Below, piece after piece: positions 5,297 through 21,028 of a stretch of 64,000 nt of DNA. The notes beneath the pieces were generated by a model. It was not told the origin of the DNA. It ran no database searches and saw nothing but the letters and a program-made list of their open reading frames with translations. Source of the stretch: an uncultured Bacillota bacterium. GTDB taxonomy: Bacteria; Sysuimicrobiota; Sysuimicrobiia; Sysuimicrobiales; Segetimicrobiaceae. Position numbers and translations under genes: made by a program. Within the stretch, counting starts at the first letter, position 1, and every line of letters begins with the position of its first letter. The stretch covers positions 96,001 to 160,000 of the forward strand of contig CAWDRG010000019.1 of assembly GCA_963804645.1 (NCBI GenBank), in the 5' to 3' direction.

Positions 5297-6805
5297 ATGA
5301 GGTATGCGCTGCAGGTCGTCTGCACGCTCGCGTGCGTGCTCGTGCTCGCGGTCCCTGGCGCGGTGTTGAGCGCGGCCGACACGAGCGTGAGCATCGCCCA
5401 GGGGATCGATGCCCAGACGCTCGACCCGCAGATGGACACGCTGGGATCGAGCACCGCCATCTTCAGCAACCTGTACGATCCGCTGGTAATGATCGACAAC
5501 ACCGGGAAAGTCGTCCCGGCCCTCGCGACCGGGTGGAAGTTTCTGAACGACACCACGTTGGAACTGACGCTGCGGCGCGGCGTGACGTTTCAGAACGGCG
5601 AGGCCTTTACCGCCCGCGACGTGGTCTTCACGCTGCAGCGCATGATGGCCACGGACCACCCGGTGCTCACGCATCCGTGGATCGCCGACATCGTCAAGAG
5701 CGTGATCGCGGTCGACGACTACACCGTCCGCATCACGACCGAGGCGCCGGACGCGCCGCTGCTGCGCCGGCTGGAGCTGTGGTTCATTCTGCCTGCCGAT
5801 ACGTTTCAGAAGGAAGGCGCCCAGGAGTTCGGGCAGCATCCGGTCGGGACGGGCGCGTACCAGGCCGGGCCGTGGGCGAAGAACGACCATCTGACGCTCA
5901 ACGCGTATGCCGAGTACTGGCGCGGGGCTCCGAAGATTTCGCAGGTGACGTTCCGCGTGATTCCGGAGGACTTTGCCCGGTACGTGGCGTTGAAGACGGG
6001 CGCAGCGGACATGGTCGTCAACCTGCCGCCGGAGCGGGTCGCGGAAGCCCAGCAGGACCCGAATCTCCGCGTCGAAGCCATCCACGCGTCGCGGACGATC
6101 TTCATCGGGATGAACACGTGGAACCCGCCGTTCAACAACGTGAAGGTGCGCCAGGCCCTGAACTACGCCGTCGACGCCACTCAGATCGTCCAGACGATCC
6201 TGAAGGGCGACGGCTACCCGAATCCGAGTCCCGTCAACCAAACCACGTTCGGCTACTGCCCGACCCTCACGCCGTACCCGCACGATCCGGCGAAGGCCCG
6301 AGCGCTCTTGGCGCAGGCCGGGTACCCGCACGGCTTCACCGCGACGCTCGCGACGACGATCGGCCGGTACCTGGACGACGTGCAGGTCGCGCAGGCGGTC
6401 TCCGGGCAGTTGGAGACCGTGGGGGTCCACGCGCAGGTGGCGCAGGAGGAGTGGCCGGTGTACTGGGGCGCGTGGCTCAGCAAGAAGCAGCCCGGCATGT
6501 ACCTCCTGGGCTTCGGCGGCGCGCCGCTCGACGCCGACTACGTGATGGCCAGTCATTTTGATTCCACCCGCCGCGGCCTCTACTACAACAGCCCGACGAG
6601 CGACAAGCTGATTGCCGAGGGCCGGCGCACCACGAGCGACGCGGCGCGGAAGCAGATCTACTGCCAGCTCCAGCAGTATCTGCAGGCGCAGGCGCCGTGG
6701 ATCTATCTGTTCGATCAGCAGGATATCTACGGCCTGACGAAGCGCGTGGTGTGGCAGCCGCGGGTCGACGAGTTGATCTGGATGTACGATGCGAAGCTCC
6801 AGTAA
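5297..6805 (+). CDS. ABC transporter substrate-binding protein, family 5 (peptide/nickel)
   Basis: Signal peptide, TLDP, LRRGVTFQNG, PVGTGAY, VRQALNYAVD. Confidence 0.92.
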   Translation: MRYALQVVCTLACVLVLAVPGAVLSAADTSVSIAQGIDAQTLDPQMDTLGSSTAIFSNLYDPLVMIDNTGKVVPALATGWKFLNDTTLELTLRRGVTFQNGEAFTARDVVFTLQRMMATDHPVLTHPWIADIVKSVIAVDDYTVRITTEAPDAPLLRRLELWFILPADTFQKEGAQEFGQHPVGTGAYQAGPWAKNDHLTLNAYAEYWRGAPKISQVTFRVIPEDFARYVALKTGAADMVVNLPPERVAEAQQDPNLRVEAIHASRTIFIGMNTWNPPFNNVKVRQALNYAVDATQIVQTILKGDGYPNPSPVNQTTFGYCPTLTPYPHDPAKARALLAQAGYPHGFTATLATTIGRYLDDVQVAQAVSGQLETVGVHAQVAQEEWPVYWGAWLSKKQPGMYLLGFGGAPLDADYVMASHFDSTRRGLYYNSPTSDKLIAEGRRTTSDAARKQIYCQLQQYLQAQAPWIYLFDQQDIYGLTKRVVWQPRVDELIWMYDAKLQ

Positions 6806-6832
6806 CGCGCGGGCGCCCCGCCGACCAGCCCC

Positions 6833-7750
6833 GTGCAAGGGTACTTGACGCGGCGGATCGCGCACTCGCTCGTCGCGCTGCTCGGCGTGACGTTGGTGGC
6901 CTTTGTCTTTGTGAACGCGAGCGGGGATCCGGCCGCGCTCTTGCTGCCTGGGGATGCCACGCCCGCGCAGGCGGCGGCCCTGCGGCGTTCGCTCGGCCTC
7001 GACCGTCCGTTCCTGACGCAGTACGGTCTGTTCGTCTGGCAAGCGGTCCACGGGAACTTCGGCGTGTCGTTTCGGCAGCAGCTGCCGGCCGCTCCACTGA
7101 TCCTGAGCTACGCGCCGGCGACCGCGGAACTCGCCGTCGGCGCCTCCGTCGTCTCGGTGGTGGTCGCGGTGCCCCTCGGCATCATCGCGGCCTCCTATCG
7201 CGGCCGCCTCTACGACTGGCTGACCTCGGTCTTCGTGCTGATCGGGCAATCGGCGCCGATTTTTTGGCTGGGGCTGATGGCGATCTGGATCTTCAGCCTC
7301 GAGCTTCGCCTGCTGCCGCCGTTCGGCCGAGGCACGCTCGCGCAGCTGGTCCTGCCCGTGATGACGCTGGCCTGGTACGTGAGCGCCCTGCTGACCCGCA
7401 TGACGCGCGCGAGCATGCTCGAGGTGCTGGACCAGGACTACATCCGCACGGCGCGCTCGAAGGGATTGAGCTGGCTTCCCGTGATTCTGAAGCACGCGCT
7501 CCGCAACGCGGCGATTCCGGTCCTGACCGTGTTTGGGCTGCAGTTCGGCGAGCTGCTGGGCGGTGTCGTGGTGACCGAAACCGTGTTTGCGTGGCCGGGG
7601 ATGGGGCGCGCGATCGTGGACGCGATCAACGCGCGCGACTACCCGGTGGTCCTGGCCGGCGTCGTGGTCCTGGCGACCATCTTCGTCGCCGTCAATCTGC
7701 TGGTCGACCTGTCCTATGGACTGCTCGACCCGCGCATCCGCTATCAATAG
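6833..7750 (+). CDS. ABC transporter permease (DppB/OppB-like)
   Basis: GLDRPFLTQY, DYIRTARSKGL, HALRNA, RDYPVV, LDPRIR. Confidence 0.92.
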   Translation: MQGYLTRRIAHSLVALLGVTLVAFVFVNASGDPAALLLPGDATPAQAAALRRSLGLDRPFLTQYGLFVWQAVHGNFGVSFRQQLPAAPLILSYAPATAELAVGASVVSVVVAVPLGIIAASYRGRLYDWLTSVFVLIGQSAPIFWLGLMAIWIFSLELRLLPPFGRGTLAQLVLPVMTLAWYVSALLTRMTRASMLEVLDQDYIRTARSKGLSWLPVILKHALRNAAIPVLTVFGLQFGELLGGVVVTETVFAWPGMGRAIVDAINARDYPVVLAGVVVLATIFVAVNLLVDLSYGLLDPRIRYQ

Positions 7751-7762
7751 ATCGGGCGGCGT

Positions 7763-8620
7763 GTGACGGCCCGTCTGCGGGGACTGGTGCGGGATCCGAA
7801 AGGGGTGGCGAGTTTCGCGCTGCTGCTGGCGATCGTCGTGGCGGCGCTCGCGGCCCCGCTGATCGCGCCGGCGAATCCGCTGCAGCAGTCCCTGCCGTCC
7901 AGTGACCTGGCGCCGATGGCATCGGGGCCCGGCGGGGCGAGGCACTGGTTGGGCACCGACGAGTACGGCCGGGACGTGCTCAGCCGGGTGATCTACGGGG
8001 CCAGGGTCTCGCTTTTGGTGGCCGTCGGCGCGGTGTTTCTCGCCGGGGTCGCGGGGGTGACCCTGGGGATCCTCGCGGGGTTTCTCGCGGGTCCGATGGA
8101 CGCGGTGACGATGCGGCTGGTGGATATCCAGCTCGCCTTTCCGACCGTGTTGCTCGCCATCGCCTGGATCGCGTTCATCGGCAACAACTTGGCGTCGCTC
8201 ATCGCCGTCGTGGCCCTCTCGGGATGGGCGTCGTACGTCCGCATTGCCCGGGCCAGCGCGCTCTCGCTGCGCGCCGTGCCGTTCGTCGAGGCGACGGTCG
8301 CTGCGGGGGCGAGCCGGACCCGCATCATGCTCCGCCACATCGCGCCCAACGTCATGGGCCCCATCATCGTCCTTGCGACGCTGCAGCTCGGCCGGGCGGT
8401 GCTCCTGGAGTCCACGTTGAGTTTCCTCGGCCTCGGGGTGCAGCCGCCGACCCCAAGCTGGGGCAGCATGCTGGCAGACGGACGGGCGCAGCTTGACGTG
8501 GCGTGGTGGATTGCTGCGTTTCCAGGCCTGGCGATCACGCTCCTGGTGCTCGGCGCCAATCTGCTGGGGGACGCCCTGCGCGACGCGCTCGATCCGCGCT
8601 TCGAACAGCGGCGGGCGTGA
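7763..8620 (+). CDS. ABC transporter permease (DppC/OppC-like)
   Basis: HWLGTDEYGRDVLSR, LSFLGLGVQPPTPSWG, GDALRDALDPR. Confidence 0.92.
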   Translation: MTARLRGLVRDPKGVASFALLLAIVVAALAAPLIAPANPLQQSLPSSDLAPMASGPGGARHWLGTDEYGRDVLSRVIYGARVSLLVAVGAVFLAGVAGVTLGILAGFLAGPMDAVTMRLVDIQLAFPTVLLAIAWIAFIGNNLASLIAVVALSGWASYVRIARASALSLRAVPFVEATVAAGASRTRIMLRHIAPNVMGPIIVLATLQLGRAVLLESTLSFLGLGVQPPTPSWGSMLADGRAQLDVAWWIAAFPGLAITLLVLGANLLGDALRDALDPRFEQRRA

Positions 8621-15752: not shown

Positions 15753-16739
15753 CTACTCCTGCGGCCGAATGATGATCTTGCCGAACACGTCCCGCTCTTC
15801 CAGGAGACGCTCGCCCTCCGCGGTGGCGGCGAGCGGCAGGCGGCGGTCGATCACCGGGCGCAGCTGCCCCGACTGCACCGCACCCAGCACCGCCTCGAGG
15901 TCCGCGCGGCTCCAGCCGTCCGAGCCGAGCACGGTGAGCTCGCGGGTCCACACATAGCGGAGGTCGGTCTTCGCGTCGTACCCGGAGGTGGCGCCGCACA
16001 CCAGGAGCCGGCCGCCCTTGCGCAGGCTGCGGATGCTGCGCGGCCACGTGTCGGCCCCGGTGTAGTCGACGACGACGTCCACCCCGCGCTTCTGCGTGAG
16101 CCGCCAGACCTCCCGGTCGAACTCGACGTCCCGGTAGTTGATGAGGTGGTCGGCGCCGAGGGCCGCGAGCTTCGCCAGCTTGTCCTCGCGCGACGCCGCC
16201 GCGTACACGACGCACCCCGCGAGCTTCGCGATCTGGACGCACGCGGTCCCCACGCCGCCCGCCGCGCCGAGGATTAGGACGCGCTCCATCGGCTGCAGAC
16301 CGCCGCGAGTCACGAGCATGCGCCACGCCGAGCCGTAGGCGATCGGCAGGGCCGCGGCGTCGTCGAAGGTCATCGCGTCGGGGAGCGGGATGAGGTTCGC
16401 AGTCGGCACCCGGACGTACTCGGCGAGGCCGCCGGGGATGTCCTCGCCGATCGCGCCCCCGTCGATGGCGGGATCGACCACCACGCGCTCGCCCACCCGC
16501 ACCGCCGAGTCGCCGGGACCGATCTCCGCGACCACCCCCGCGATATCCCCGCCGGACGTGAACGGCAGGGGCGTGGGCTTCCCGGGCATGCCGCGCCGCA
16601 CGAACACATCGAGGTGGTTGAGGCCGCAGGCGTGGACCTGGACGACGGCGTGCCCCGGCCCGGCGCGGGGCGTCGGCACATCCGACTCGAGCCGCAGTAC
16701 GTCGCGTCCCCCGTGTTCGTGAAAGACGACCGCCCGCAT
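15753..16739 (-). CDS. MDR family zinc-binding dehydrogenase / NADPH:quinone oxidoreductase
   Basis: ACGLNHLD, GAAGGVG, CGATSG, FGKII. Confidence 0.88.
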   Translation of the reverse strand: MRAVVFHEHGGRDVLRLESDVPTPRAGPGHAVVQVHACGLNHLDVFVRRGMPGKPTPLPFTSGGDIAGVVAEIGPGDSAVRVGERVVVDPAIDGGAIGEDIPGGLAEYVRVPTANLIPLPDAMTFDDAAALPIAYGSAWRMLVTRGGLQPMERVLILGAAGGVGTACVQIAKLAGCVVYAAASREDKLAKLAALGADHLINYRDVEFDREVWRLTQKRGVDVVVDYTGADTWPRSIRSLRKGGRLLVCGATSGYDAKTDLRYVWTRELTVLGSDGWSRADLEAVLGAVQSGQLRPVIDRRLPLAATAEGERLLEERDVFGKIIIRPQE

Positions 16740-16844
16740 GATGTCTCCACCCCGTGCGGCGGACGGCCCCGTCGGCCCGCCCGCACTGCCGCTGTGGAAA
16801 CTTCGCGGCGTGCGGGCGCATCACCTAGATAAGATGAACGAGCC

Positions 16845-17126
16845 GGCGACCCGCGTAATACCTGAATCCGGCGGCATCTGCGCAGACTTTGGAGCAAGCA
16901 CGACCTGCTCGCGGAAGCTCGCGAATTGCTTGGGCCGGTGCGATCCAAGGGACGAAATTGTGCCCTTCCAGGATAATCTACACTCCAGTGTAGATTATCC
17001 TGGCAGGGCACAATTTCGTCGTCCATCGGCCCGCCGGTGCATGTCATTGGCAAGCTTCCGCGAGCAGATCGTGCTGGCTCTAAAGTCTGGACATTTCCGC
17101 CGGATTCAGGTAATACGTGGGTTGCC
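16845..17126. repeat. Long imperfect palindrome (about 280 bp) with a 70-bp near-perfect core
   Basis: 16951-16984 pairs with 16987-17020 (34 bp, 1 mismatch); outer arms 16845-16919 and 17053-17126 are largely complementary. Confidence 0.92.
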
Positions 17127-17166
17127 ACCAGGACGGAGGCCTATCCACATACGGGGGTGCCGGCTC

Positions 17167-18275
17167 ATGGATCAGCATAGCATAGTGGTTGGTCTGGATG
17201 TCCACAAAGGGAGCATCACGGCCGCGGTCCTGCCGCCAAACGTTGCGCGGCCTCAGGAGACGTGCACGATCGAGAACGACGCGCGGGCCGTCGAGCGCTT
17301 GGTGAAACGGATCATGAAGAACGGGAATGCGGTGTTTGTGTACGAGGCGGGGCCGTGTGGATATACGCTGCACCGGCAGTTGTATCGTCTGGGCTGCCAG
17401 GCGGCGGTGATCGCCCCGGGCCTGACGCCCGTGCGTCCCGGCGATCGGGTCAAAACGGATCGGCGTGACGCGGAGAACTTGGCCCAACTCTATCGCGCGG
17501 GGCAACTCACGGAAATTCGGGTGCCCACCGGGGAAGAGGAAGCGGCCAGAGACCTCGTCCGTGCGCGCGAAGACGCCGTGGCCGACCGGCTGCGCGCCCG
17601 ACATCGGCTGAGCAAATTTCTCCTTCGTCAAGGACGGCTGTACGATGGCAAGCAAGCGTGGAGTCAGAAGCATTACGCGTGGCTCCGTCAGCAACGGTTT
17701 GAGTTGACGTTGGCCCAGCAGACGTTTGATGCGTATCTCCGCGGGGTCGAAGAAGCCGACGCCCGGTTGGCGAGTTTGACCACCCAGGTGCTCGAACTGG
17801 CGCAACGGCCGAGCTATGCGGCGCTTGTGCAAGGCCTGCGCTGTCTGAAAGGCGTCGACACGCTGACCGCGATCACACTGATTGTCGAAACACAGGACTT
17901 CCGGCGCTTTGGGCACGCCCGCGCGTACATGGACTTCACCGGCTTGGTGTGCTCCGAGAACAGCAGCGGAGACAGGACCCGCCGCGGCTCTATTACGAAA
18001 GTCGGCAACGCGCATCTCCGCCGTGTCCTGGTCGAGCGGCCTGGAGCTACTCGCATCACAACAGCAGCGGCGCGACGATCACCAAACGACGCCACGGCTG
18101 TCCGGCGGCAGTGGTGCAGATCGCCCGCCGTGCGCAGGACCGGCTTCACCGCCGCTACTGGCGCCTGACCCAGCGCAATAAGCCACGGCCAGTCGCGATC
18201 GTCGCCGTCGCGCGGGAGTTGGCAGGATTCGTCTGGGCAATCGCGCATAGCGTGTCGAGCACCACCGCGGCGTAG
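17167..18275 (+). pseudogene. IS110 family transposase, frameshifted near 18036
   Basis: GLDVHK, YEAG, KTDRRDA, SENSSG, GNAHLRRVLVE, then AAWSY...AIVAVARELAGFVWAI in another frame. Confidence 0.88.
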
Positions 18276-18484
18276 AGTACCAGGAACAGATTCCGAGGAT
18301 CGACGGACGTGTTCTGGACCTGGAGGCGAAGCAGCGGTCAGGAGCATCCTCGAGGGGTCTATGTGGCGGACAGGCTGACGTCTGTGCCGACCCACGTTCC
18401 TAGATTGAGGCAGCTCCCGACGAATCACAATCATGTGCGCTCTGCCCGCTTCGTGCGGGTAACCGCCGAATACGCATGAAAATG

Positions 18485-19690
18485 TCAAGGCTTTTCTCGC
18501 TGCCTCGTGCCGTGGCGGGTAGCGACGAAGGCTCGGTAGTGTCCCTCCGCATCTTGTAAGACCTGCCGTTCTTCAGCCGGCGTCAACGTTTGCTCGTTGG
18601 TCTTGTCCGGCTTGCGTGGACGGCCCCGTCGGCTGGGTGCGCCTGCGGTCAGCTCCACTCGACGTAGCTTGTGCGCCGTAAGACTCGGAGGCGTCCATTT
18701 GTAGTCGGTCCTATCCGCGAGCAGGTGCCAGGCCACCACCGCTAGCTTGCGCGCCACGGCGACGATCGCGATGGCGCGCCCGCGGCGAGCGCGCACACGA
18801 TCGTAGAAGGCATGCAGAGGACCGGGCACACGGATTGCGGACTGGGCCGCTTCGACCAACAGCCCACGCGCATGCGCCTGTCCCTGTCGGCTGATGTGGC
18901 CTGTATGAGCGGGTCGCTCACCGGATTGGCGCACCCGTGGATCCAGGCCCAAATAGCCGACCAACTGCGTCGGCCGCTGAAACCGTGCGACGTCTCCGAT
19001 GACAGCGAGGAGAGCGACCGACGTGATCAACCCCACACCAGGGATCGTCATCAATCGCGTCGCCTGCGGATCCGCGAGAGCGGCCTGCGCGATCCGTTGT
19101 TCGGCTAACTTGATCTCCGCGTCGACGGCGGTGAGCAGGCGGAGCGCACTATCGACTTGGTCCTTCTCTTCGCGCGGAAGCGGCACACTCGCGAGCCAGC
19201 GACAGCCGGCCTTCCCGAACAGGTCCGTGAAGGAGTGTCCAATGAGATTGCGGTGCAGCACCCCGTGAATCCGATTCCGAAGACGCGTCCGCTGCTGAAC
19301 CAGCGACTGATGATGGGCGACCTGATGGCGGAGCGCTCGTGTCACCGGATCTGGTGTCCACACAGGCGGGATAAAATCCGCCGCGAGCAATTGTGCCAAA
19401 ATTGCGCTGTCCACTCGGTCAGTCTTGACCTTGGCACTCGCGATGGCCCGCGTGCGCATTGGATTGGACACAATGACTTCACCGGCATGCTCACTCAGCA
19501 ATTCGGCGATCGCCCATGTATTCACGCTCGCCTCGAGGACGACGCGATCCGTCGAGTGCAGCGTGCGCGCAAAAGCTCGCAATGCGGCGGGCGTCGTCTC
19601 AATGCGTTGCCGTTGCTGAACCTTGCGTCCGTGTTCAAGTACGGCGACTTCAGCAAAGCGTTTGTGGACGTCCAGCCCTATCGATCGCAT
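18485..19690 (-). CDS. IS110 family transposase/recombinase (intact)
   Basis: MRSIGLDVHK, LEAS, KTDRVDS, TIPGVG, YLGLDPRVRQSG, AIVAVARKL. Confidence 0.93.
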   Translation of the reverse strand: MRSIGLDVHKRFAEVAVLEHGRKVQQRQRIETTPAALRAFARTLHSTDRVVLEASVNTWAIAELLSEHAGEVIVSNPMRTRAIASAKVKTDRVDSAILAQLLAADFIPPVWTPDPVTRALRHQVAHHQSLVQQRTRLRNRIHGVLHRNLIGHSFTDLFGKAGCRWLASVPLPREEKDQVDSALRLLTAVDAEIKLAEQRIAQAALADPQATRLMTIPGVGLITSVALLAVIGDVARFQRPTQLVGYLGLDPRVRQSGERPAHTGHISRQGQAHARGLLVEAAQSAIRVPGPLHAFYDRVRARRGRAIAIVAVARKLAVVAWHLLADRTDYKWTPPSLTAHKLRRVELTAGAPSRRGRPRKPDKTNEQTLTPAEERQVLQDAEGHYRAFVATRHGTRQREKP

Positions 19691-19699
19691 GCAGACCCC

Positions 19700-19895
19700 C
19701 TTGGGACCCAGCCGGGCACCACAACACCTACGCATCCGCGCTCGCAGCGCAACCGGGTCAGTCGCAGGGGCGGCCAGATATCAGATCGGACTCGTGGTCC
19801 ATATTCGCGACGGCCTGCCCGTTGCTGGTGGTCCCTTGTGCCCCATGGCCCGGCTCCGCTACGATAAGTCGGAACCGGGTGGGACACCTCTTTCA
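19700..19895 (-). ncRNA. Predicted bridge RNA in the left end of IS110 element 2
   Basis: Internal loop closed by GGCC/GGCC and GGAC/GTCC stems, holding two segments matching the reconstructed target. Confidence 0.65.
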
Positions 19896-20206
19896 TAACC
19901 GATATCAGAGTGATTCACCGTCGCGAACGCTTCGCTTCCAGGACCCGAATACGCCGTCCATCCTCTGGGACGACGGAGGGCCGTTCGTGGCTTGACCTAC
20001 ACGGTACTTGACAGGCTCGTTCATATCAGACCTCGGGCGCGAGGCTCCGGTGGAGGAGGTCGCGGCCGATCCGCGAATCGTGATCCACGCACCGGGACGG
20101 TTCGTGGATCACGGAACCACGACATGCACGTATGCGCGCGGGCGGGGATCGCCGTTGTCGCCGCACGCCGCCCACCCCGATACCCCAGTTCCCTGGAGGC
20201 GCCGCC

Positions 20207-21028
20207 ATGAACGTGTTTGCCAGTCCGGAGATGATCCGATCGCTCACGCCGCTCAGCCGCTTCGACCGGTCACCCGACGGCCGGCCGCGGGTGCCGGACG
20301 ACGTGCTGGGACGCATCGCGCAGTCGTCGATCGAGCAGGCTTGGAAGACCCTCGGTCTGGCCGGGTACGATCACCAATTCGAGGGCAACTGGCTCCAAAC
20401 GCATCCCGGCCGCGTGCTGGTGGGCCGGGCGGTGACGGCCGTGTTCATGCCGTTCCGGCCGGATCTCGACGACGTGGTCATCGCGGGATCGGGCAAGCCC
20501 GCGGGGGAGCGCAAGGGGGGCGCCGGCCAAAACTCGTGGGTCATCGACAGCCTGCTTCCCGGCGACGTGCTCGTGGCAGACTTGTACGGCAAGATCGAGA
20601 ACGGGACGCTCGTCGGCGACAACCTCTCGACGACGCTCAGCCGACGGACGGGGGCCGGGGCTGTGATTGAGGGAGGCATTCGGGACTATGAGGGCGTGAA
20701 GCAGATCCCGTCCCTGCAGATCTTCTGCCGGGGCCTGCATCCGACCGCGATCCGCGAGATGTCGCTCGTCGGGGTCAACATCCCGGTGCGCATCGGCGGC
20801 GTGACGGTGCTGCCGGGCGACGTGGTGCTCGGCAAGGAGACGGGGGTGATCTTCATTCCGCCCCATCTCGCCGAGGACGTGGCCACGCGCGCGGAGGACA
20901 TCCGGCTGCGCGACATCTTCAGCAAGCAGCGGCTGGCCGAGGGGCGGTACACGGCATTCGCGATCGACAAGGACTGGACTCAGGACATCGAGGACGATTT
21001 TCGGAACTGGAAGACCGCGCGCGGGTAG
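20207..21028 (+). CDS. RraA family / HMG-aldolase-like protein
   Basis: LVGRAVT, PGDVLVAD, VGDNL, VIEGGIRD, VLPGDVVLG. Confidence 0.85.
   Translation: MNVFASPEMIRSLTPLSRFDRSPDGRPRVPDDVLGRIAQSSIEQAWKTLGLAGYDHQFEGNWLQTHPGRVLVGRAVTAVFMPFRPDLDDVVIAGSGKPAGERKGGAGQNSWVIDSLLPGDVLVADLYGKIENGTLVGDNLSTTLSRRTGAGAVIEGGIRDYEGVKQIPSLQIFCRGLHPTAIREMSLVGVNIPVRIGGVTVLPGDVVLGKETGVIFIPPHLAEDVATRAEDIRLRDIFSKQRLAEGRYTAFAIDKDWTQDIEDDFRNWKTARG

Follow-up and report, generated by a model that had tools for sequence, protein, structure and literature searches.

A putative RNA-guided IS110-family element directed at the donor guide of a second IS110-family element

Introduction

Recombinases guided by bridge or seek RNAs are being turned into programmable tools for writing genomes. 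So far, REP repeats, attC sites, transposon ends and short chromosomal sites have been recognized as their targets in nature. Here we describe two nested insertion sequences (ISs) of the IS110 family in DNA of an uncultured Bacillota bacterium (GenBank assembly GCA_963804645.1, contig CAWDRG010000019.1, positions 96,001 to 160,000). This stretch of 64,000 nucleotides (nt) is referred to as the window, and positions are counted from its first letter. The outer IS, element 1, is the host of the inner one, element 2, which appears to carry a guide RNA directed at the DNA specifying the donor guide of element 1.

Results

Two nested elements

The two elements and the main parts of the inner one are as follows.

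16829-20029, plus strand: element 1, the IS1111-like host (ends from five flank comparisons)
17167-18272, plus strand: element 1 transposase gene, frameshifted in the window copy
18470-19904, minus strand: element 2, including both copies of its 3-nt core (from the comparison of empty and occupied sites)
18488-19690, minus strand: element 2 transposase, 401 amino acids (aa), with its ATG at 19690 and its stop codon at 18485-18487
19692-19901, minus strand: left non-coding end of element 2, RNA-encoding, comprising a 5' hairpin, the target loop (loop 1) and the donor loop (loop 2) (from the fold and the consensus of 13 relatives)
19892-19897, minus strand: −10-like box TATGAA, 4 nt within the left end of element 2, conserved in relatives
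18483-18488, minus strand: −35-like box TTGACA in the right end of element 2, conserved beside the right terminus in relatives

Both transposases belong to the IS110 family; their genes lie head to tail on opposite strands, and the two proteins are 29% identical. The Pfam scores of element 2 (DEDD_Tnp_IS110, 2.2e-21; Transposase_20, 6.5e-25) were taken on the 416-aa frame at 18488-19735, which includes the 401-aa coding sequence; those of element 1 are 2.7e-18 and 4.3e-16 for the same two domains. A 1-nt deletion at about position 18037, present only in the window copy of element 1, leads to a stop at codon 333, as compared to a 369-aa frame in the other five copies in this genome.

The core of element 2 reads ATA on the plus strand and TAT in the sense of the element, with copies at 18470-18472 and 19902-19904. 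A first-pass annotation, made from the letters of this DNA, had proposed that the element is bounded by ATA and that its removal restores the host sequence, and this is borne out by a copy of element 1 on contig C16 that is empty and reads uninterrupted CCGCCGAATATCAGAGTGATTC. Because this empty copy could be compared with occupied ones, element 2 proper can be set at 1432 nt plus a duplicated ATA. A single ATA in the empty site, against two in the occupied ones, is as expected of the core in the broad IS110 family, and element 2 also shares with that family the lack of long terminal inverted repeats. The positions given earlier for cores, stems and loop strands are all correct (GGCC at 19772-19775 and 19812-19815, GGAC at 19788-19791, GTCC at 19797-19800, ATATCAGA at 19778-19785, ATATTCG at 19801-19807 and TACGCAT at 19729-19735). 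A contig that joins 18469 to 19902, skipping the 1432 nt, occurs in one DNA run and one RNA-library run of a community holding the sequence.

Upstream of its transposase gene, element 2 has about 210 nt of non-coding DNA, and 15 nt separate the stop codon from the right terminus. In the transposase sense, the left end starts TAT-CGGT-TATGAAAG and the right end terminates TTGACATTTTCATGCG-TAT. When joined, the ends read TTGACA-N17-TATGAA, with both boxes conserved in relatives, and the predicted circle junction is TTGACA...CATGCG-TAT-CGGTTATGAA; no such junction was seen in the assembled contigs from the community runs. A subterminal inverted repeat, ATGAAA(A)/(T)TTTCAT, measures 6-7 bp (the IS1111 range is 7-17 bp). 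No bridge-RNA family was matched in an Rfam scan of positions 16000-21000.

Repeated occupation of one site

The genome (5.3 Mb, 22 contigs) was searched by BLAST with both elements. Five of its six copies of element 1 are occupied by a member of the element 2 family, and all five members share a single position, within element 1. The occupied copies read from CCGCCGAATA into CGCATG...CATAACCGATA and then into TCAGAGTG. The 11-mer CGAATATCAGA occurs once in the 5.3 Mb, in the empty copy, with 0.34 occurrences expected by chance.

The inserts are diverged: those on C19 and C6 are identical to each other (variant A), the one on C17 shows 81% identity, and the two on C21, one of which ends at the contig end, show about 73%. 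Variants A and C retain an open transposase frame, and that of variant B is broken. Over about 1360 nt, only 2 positions vary among the six host copies (about 99.9% identity). Since nearly identical hosts carry diverged inserts, these results indicate that variants of element 2 inserted independently at least three times at the same nucleotide. A single ancient insertion, followed by propagation of the composite, would leave the shared site without any bearing on targeting, and relatives of element 2 are indeed found in relatives of element 1 elsewhere (G004, G012, L044 and the Solirubrobacterales group). However, the contrast between hosts of about 99.9% identity and inserts of 73-81% within one genome, the existence of an empty copy, and the continued agreement between the guides and the divided half-sites, with the right guide altered to compensate, all argue against it, as drift would not preserve such matches. 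We therefore regard a single insertion as very improbable.

The predicted left-end RNA of element 2

The predicted RNA of element 2 has the following parts.

19801-19807, minus strand: right target guide CGAAUAU, 5' strand of loop 1, complementary at 7/7 positions to the target top strand A-TAT-TCG
19778-19785, minus strand: left target guide UCUGAUAU, 3' strand of loop 1, identical at 8/8 positions to left flank plus core
19788-19800, minus strand: inner hairpin of loop 1, GGAC-CACGA-GUCC, with compensatory changes
19768-19776 and 19811-19820, minus strand: closing stem of loop 1, 3' arm (UGGCCGCCC) and 5' arm, near-invariant
19729-19735, minus strand: left donor guide AUGCGUA, 3' strand of loop 2, equal to the right terminus CATGCG plus TA

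When 151 related genomes were searched with the left end, 19 matching places came from 11 of them, and a scan of one genome per species added 28 loci with related transposases, 24 of which have the RNA. The consensus fold of 13 sequences consists of a 5' hairpin followed by two internal loops, the first of which is the loop drawn in the first-pass annotation. In its closing stem, eight of nine pairs keep their pair type in all 13 sequences and the ninth varies between CG and UG in two, while three pairs of the inner hairpin show compensatory changes. Element 2 thus possesses a structured RNA end with loops matching target and donor, a feature of the broad IS110 family. When a metagenome was scanned with a 14-mer from the left-end start, none of at least 120 loci matched the left-end RNA profile, and these were taken as chance matches.

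The 5' strand of loop 2, GACCCGGUU (19751-19763, minus strand), shares CGGUU with the left-end start of element 2. Relatives track this likeness, CUGGU occurring with CTGGT; in each case, the sense is the same and not the complement.

Among contigs assembled from RNA libraries, 18677-18931 within the element 2 transposase gene is represented, as is the host right end in its empty form. From run X20 come two short pieces of host sequence, at 18300-18414.

Joint changes of guides and flanks

Landmarks were extracted by script from 46 oriented loci, of which 25 were complete; the 21 left out either had no −10 box at the expected distance (13) or no match to the loop pattern (8). The left guide agrees with left flank plus core at 8/8 positions in 13 of the 25 loci, at 7/8 in 7, at 6/8 in 4 and at 4/8 in 1. 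Over the five non-core positions, guides agree with their own flanks at 4.56 positions on average, as compared to 1.89 for pairs drawn from different programmes, which is the covariation that the first-pass annotation had proposed to look for. The distinct left-guide programmes include TCTGATAT, GCTGATAT, GTTGGTA, GCCTTTAT and TGGTGTAT.

For the right guide, core plus right flank (six bases) could be compared at the 17 loci with a right junction: the match is 6/6 in 7, 5/6 in 4, 4/6 in 3, 3/6 in 2 and 1/6 in 1, and all three flank bases match in 10 of them. The element 2 type has the guide CGAAUAU and the flank TCG, whereas five loci of the Solirubrobacterales group have CGCAUAU and GCG; L051 is the exception in that group and carries TCG. 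The donor guide also changes with the terminus, AUGCGUA occurring with the right terminus CATGCG and AUCCGU with CATCCG. Both strands of loop 1 had been read beforehand as target guides, and TACGCAT as a match to the right terminus of the element, and both assignments gain support from these joint changes. A different reading would be that the transposase recognizes the hairpin-rich DNA of the host donor loop, the loop matches being incidental. Every target of the element 2 type does adjoin a hairpin, and a 2026 preprint reports that ISPpu10 requires both sequence and structure. As both guides change with their flanks over several programmes, including targets in ordinary coding genes, we consider site choice by protein or DNA structure improbable.

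Several relatives were observed in other surroundings. One member of the element 2 clade, L007 (711-1415), lies in an asparaginase gene (Pfam PF00710, PF17763). Six (L008, L010, L011, L014, L017 and L019) lie inside a gene with a KGRVERLFGTFQDRL motif; L019 (1074-1421) is in the genome of the window, outside the window itself. L009 (1186-1419) adjoins TNGIERAFREI. Members situated in coding sequence, such as L007, L019 and L009, have guides that differ from those of element 2, and the coding fragments with KGRVERLFGT or TNGIERAF motifs gave no Pfam match. The idea that the whole clade targets mobile elements was rejected, as L007 sits in the asparaginase gene. Since clade members occupy conserved coding sequence, conserved sequences seem to be the general targets of the clade, and the targeting of a donor guide is the habit of one of its branches.

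A third, more distant group, with 47% protein identity and a different left-end start, includes L045, L048, L050, L057, L059, L063, L064, L066, L067 and L071. In L053, L047 and L049, and in the KGRVERLFGT-target group, the triplets at the two junctions are frequently unequal, as with a left TAT and a right GAT. It follows that donor and target cores are not always the same, nor simply duplicated.

The target within element 1

The right end of element 1 contains the following features on either side of element 2.

18348-18410, plus strand: target-binding loop of the element 1 RNA, stem CCUCGA/UUGAGG, 5' strand GGGGUC, 3' strand CCUAGA
18422-18472, plus strand: proximal part of the donor-binding loop, comprising stem arm GAAUCAC, an inner hairpin and the initial part of the donor guide, interrupted by element 2
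19902-19909, plus strand: rest of the donor guide, AUAUCAGA
19910-19916, plus strand: stem arm GUGAUUC

With element 2 removed, about 330 nt of non-coding DNA follow the transposase gene of element 1. The right end of the empty copy folds at −152.3 kcal/mol (z = −5.0 relative to shuffled controls) into a structure with two internal loops, closed by CCUCGA/UUGAGG and GAAUCAC/GUGAUUC. The 5' strand of the first loop, GGGGUC, is the complement of core plus right flank and changes with the right flank in relatives; likewise, the five bases ahead of CUAUG complement the five found after the right terminus. The loop agrees with its own flanks at a mean of 3.7/5 positions, as compared to 1.53/5 for cross pairs, in 10 relatives (of 14 aligned sequences, 4 had no landmarks). 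These joint changes of loop and flanks identify the region as the guide RNA of element 1, with the IS1111 order of guides.

Element 2 is inserted in the 3' strand of the second loop, immediately before the closing stem. The 8-mer AUAUCAGA equals the right terminus of element 1, ATATCAG, followed by the A with which its left end begins. As both terminus and segment are nearly invariant in close relatives of element 1, these are uninformative about the donor guide. The hosts of the Solirubrobacterales group, likewise IS110-family members showing 47% protein identity to element 1, fall into three variants.

L047, L051 and L055: terminus CATATCAG, internal segment ATATCAG
L049 and L053: terminus CATCTCAG, internal segment ATCTCAG
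L062: terminus CATATGAG, internal segment ATATGAG

Since the internal segment tracks the terminus in these diverged hosts, the target of element 2 is most likely the left donor guide of its host, located on the second host loop, as the first-pass annotation had supposed.

Further features of element 1

The subterminal inverted repeats of element 1 are 11 bp long (ATGAACGAGCC at 16834-16844 and GGCTCGTTCAT at 20014-20024). Its right end finishes ...CATATCAG, its insertion sites read CTAG-ACCYC, and its core is probably AG. Empty relatives (L023 in G006, L025 in G011, and L032-L034) show single changes in the 11-mer target, namely CGAACATCAGA, CGTATATCAGA and CGGATATCAGG, and some of these changes also break the match to the relative's own terminus. 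A 207-nt RNA-library contig from run X19 joins 18399-18469 to 19902-20032, the uninterrupted form, and stops at the element 1 terminus, which is a weak hint that the right-end RNA region of element 1 is expressed.

A second insert is present in the left end of element 1. In the window, it is a near-palindromic sequence of 248 bp (16862-17109) with terminal repeats CTGAATCCGGCGG, flanked by GTAATAC repeats. Sub-threshold Rfam matches to microRNA models at 16950-17021 within it were taken as hairpin artefacts. In the C6 copy of element 1, the insert is 232 bp long and lies in opposite orientation (88% identical when flipped), and a C21 copy has, at the same site, two identical tandem elements of 1495 bp (L072:4885-6379 and 6383-7877), each encoding a 440-aa DDE_Tnp_1_4 transposase. 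Element 1 has thus been struck at two fixed sites by two unrelated elements. The suggestion that elements 1 and 2 moved as a unit is unsupported, the second insert being opposite in orientation and 88% identical between the copies with element 2A.

Discussion

Element 2 is, with high probability, an active or recently active IS of the IS110 family that is programmed by RNA against the DNA of the donor guide of element 1. We propose that it selects its target by means of an RNA encoded in its own left end. In an excised circle, the joined ends would form the promoter TTGACA-N17-TATGAA and drive synthesis of the RNA and the transposase, as judged by the behaviour of the family. As sequence and comparison show, loop 1 provides the two guides for the target, the 3' strand of loop 2 (AUGCGUA) reads the right end of element 2, and recombination takes place at the TAT core. 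The programmed site, CGA-ATA-TCAGA in the host sense, is the DNA for the left donor guide in the donor-binding loop of element 1. Because a donor guide must match the right terminus of element 1, this site is expected to be conserved and to occur once per copy.

Several observations weigh against this proposal. Loop 2 of element 2 yielded no reverse complement of the left-end start that could serve as a right donor guide. The contigs from RNA libraries do not cover the left end (19692-19901) and are uninformative for its RNA. Flank matches are imperfect in several relatives, such as L009 (4/8) and L007 (1/6, right guide), and the host donor guide is supported by three variants whose sequences were compared by eye. 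As for harm to element 1, RNA might still be provided in trans by its one intact copy. Finally, 59 of 5000 dinucleotide shuffles of the left end (about 1%) reproduced the raw match, scored as an 8-mer of one strand plus a 7-mer of the other in a 33-nt target window. The observation goes beyond chance nonetheless, on three grounds: reuse of the same site, joint change of guides and flanks in relatives, and conservation of the predicted loop. It is this comparative evidence, rather than the raw match, that carries the proposed targeting.

Relative to IS621, element 2 has a subterminal inverted repeat of 6-7 bp, a core of TAT, where that of IS621 is CT, and a target that is the guide-RNA gene of another element. 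The first-pass annotation had likened its guides to those of IS110 bridge RNAs, and this holds for the paired loop guides, whereas their order is that of IS1111 and not that of IS621. In element 2 and its relatives, the top-strand complement is 5' (19801-19807) and the bottom-strand match is 3' (19778-19785), which departs from the strict IS110 order. The bridge RNA system of the IS110 group (PMC11208160) resembles element 2 in its DEDD transposase, in an RNA located upstream in the left end, and in two internal loops, one for the target and one for the element's own ends, each reading both DNA strands across the core; IS621 also has a circle-junction promoter, for which element 2 has a candidate across its joined ends. 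The order of the guides is reversed between the two (PMC11208160).

In the IS1111-family seekRNA elements ISEc11, ISKpn4 and ISPa11, the top-strand complement lies 5' of the bottom-strand match, and subterminal inverted repeats are found (PMC11187229). Element 1 fits the IS1111 type in full (downstream RNA, inverted repeats and guide order), while element 2 shares the guide order, has a short subterminal inverted repeat, and differs in having its RNA upstream rather than downstream of the transposase gene. Rare IS1111 relatives with an upstream non-coding region, such as ISMtsp17, are mentioned in the report on those elements too (PMC11187229). An upstream RNA combined with the IS1111 guide order is, then, uncommon, not unheard of.

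IS110/IS1111-family elements that insert at fixed sites in other mobile DNA have been described for Tn21 ends and attC sites. Like element 2, they use a single position within a functional, conserved part of a different mobile element. Their targets, however, are protein-recognized ends or integron recombination sites, whereas the target of element 2 would encode the donor guide of an RNA-guided element of the same superfamily. A literature search, with most subscription papers outside its reach, returned no report of a guide of one element aimed at the guide-RNA gene of another. The mechanism is that of known bridge or seek RNA guidance; it is the class of target that is new.

Insertion at this site places the crossover within the donor guide, and the target loop, together with the proximal half of the donor loop, then lies 1.43 kb away from the terminus and the distal stem arm. 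With its RNA gene split in this way, an occupied copy of element 1 would be unable to make its own bridge RNA. The term hyperparasite, used in the first-pass annotation, implies harm to the host element, which is deduced from the split RNA gene. The related claim, that the host cannot easily mutate the segment, needs modification: the segment is constrained by the terminus, but it can change together with a paired change in the terminus, and such variants exist.

Element 1 might instead be a safe harbour and vehicle, that is, a harmless, multi-copy and horizontally moving landing pad, with the overlap with the donor guide mattering only through its conservation; the composite might still move when RNA and transposase are supplied in trans, carrying element 2 along. 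This would agree with the conserved coding motifs targeted by other clade members, as in the asparaginase gene of L007, with the persistence of one intact copy of element 1, and with the regeneration of the 8-mer AUAUCAGA at the right junction. However, the insertion parts the host target loop and half of the donor loop from the remainder by 1.43 kb, no composite has been seen to have moved as a unit, and the second insert varies in orientation and sequence between the two host copies that share an identical element 2A. We regard the safe-harbour interpretation as possible, although rather doubtful.

Guided insertion into a donor guide might be a property of more than this one element. The association spans hosts that are 47% identical in protein and inserts that are 59% identical, in different bacterial groups. 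The paired changes of guide and terminus in the hosts (ATCTCAG, ATATGAG), which mismatch the parasite guide, might be traces of an arms race on the host side, and the retuned right guide (CGA to CGC) such a trace on the parasite side. That a whole IS lineage has specialized as parasites of a second RNA-guided IS lineage, aimed at its donor guide as the one short segment that such a host could not alter by itself, is a tentative proposal for which we see nearly balanced chances.

On the comparative grounds given above, elements 1 and 2 would represent a natural case of one RNA-guided system programmed against the guide-RNA gene of another, such that elements of this kind compete with each other, and the donor guide would be an evolutionarily constrained point of an RNA-guided transposon. 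The loci described here supply natural pairs of guide and target, with at least five left-guide programmes and two right-guide variants. By combining the IS110-type position of the RNA with the IS1111-type order of guides, element 2 also bears on how the two subfamilies are related.

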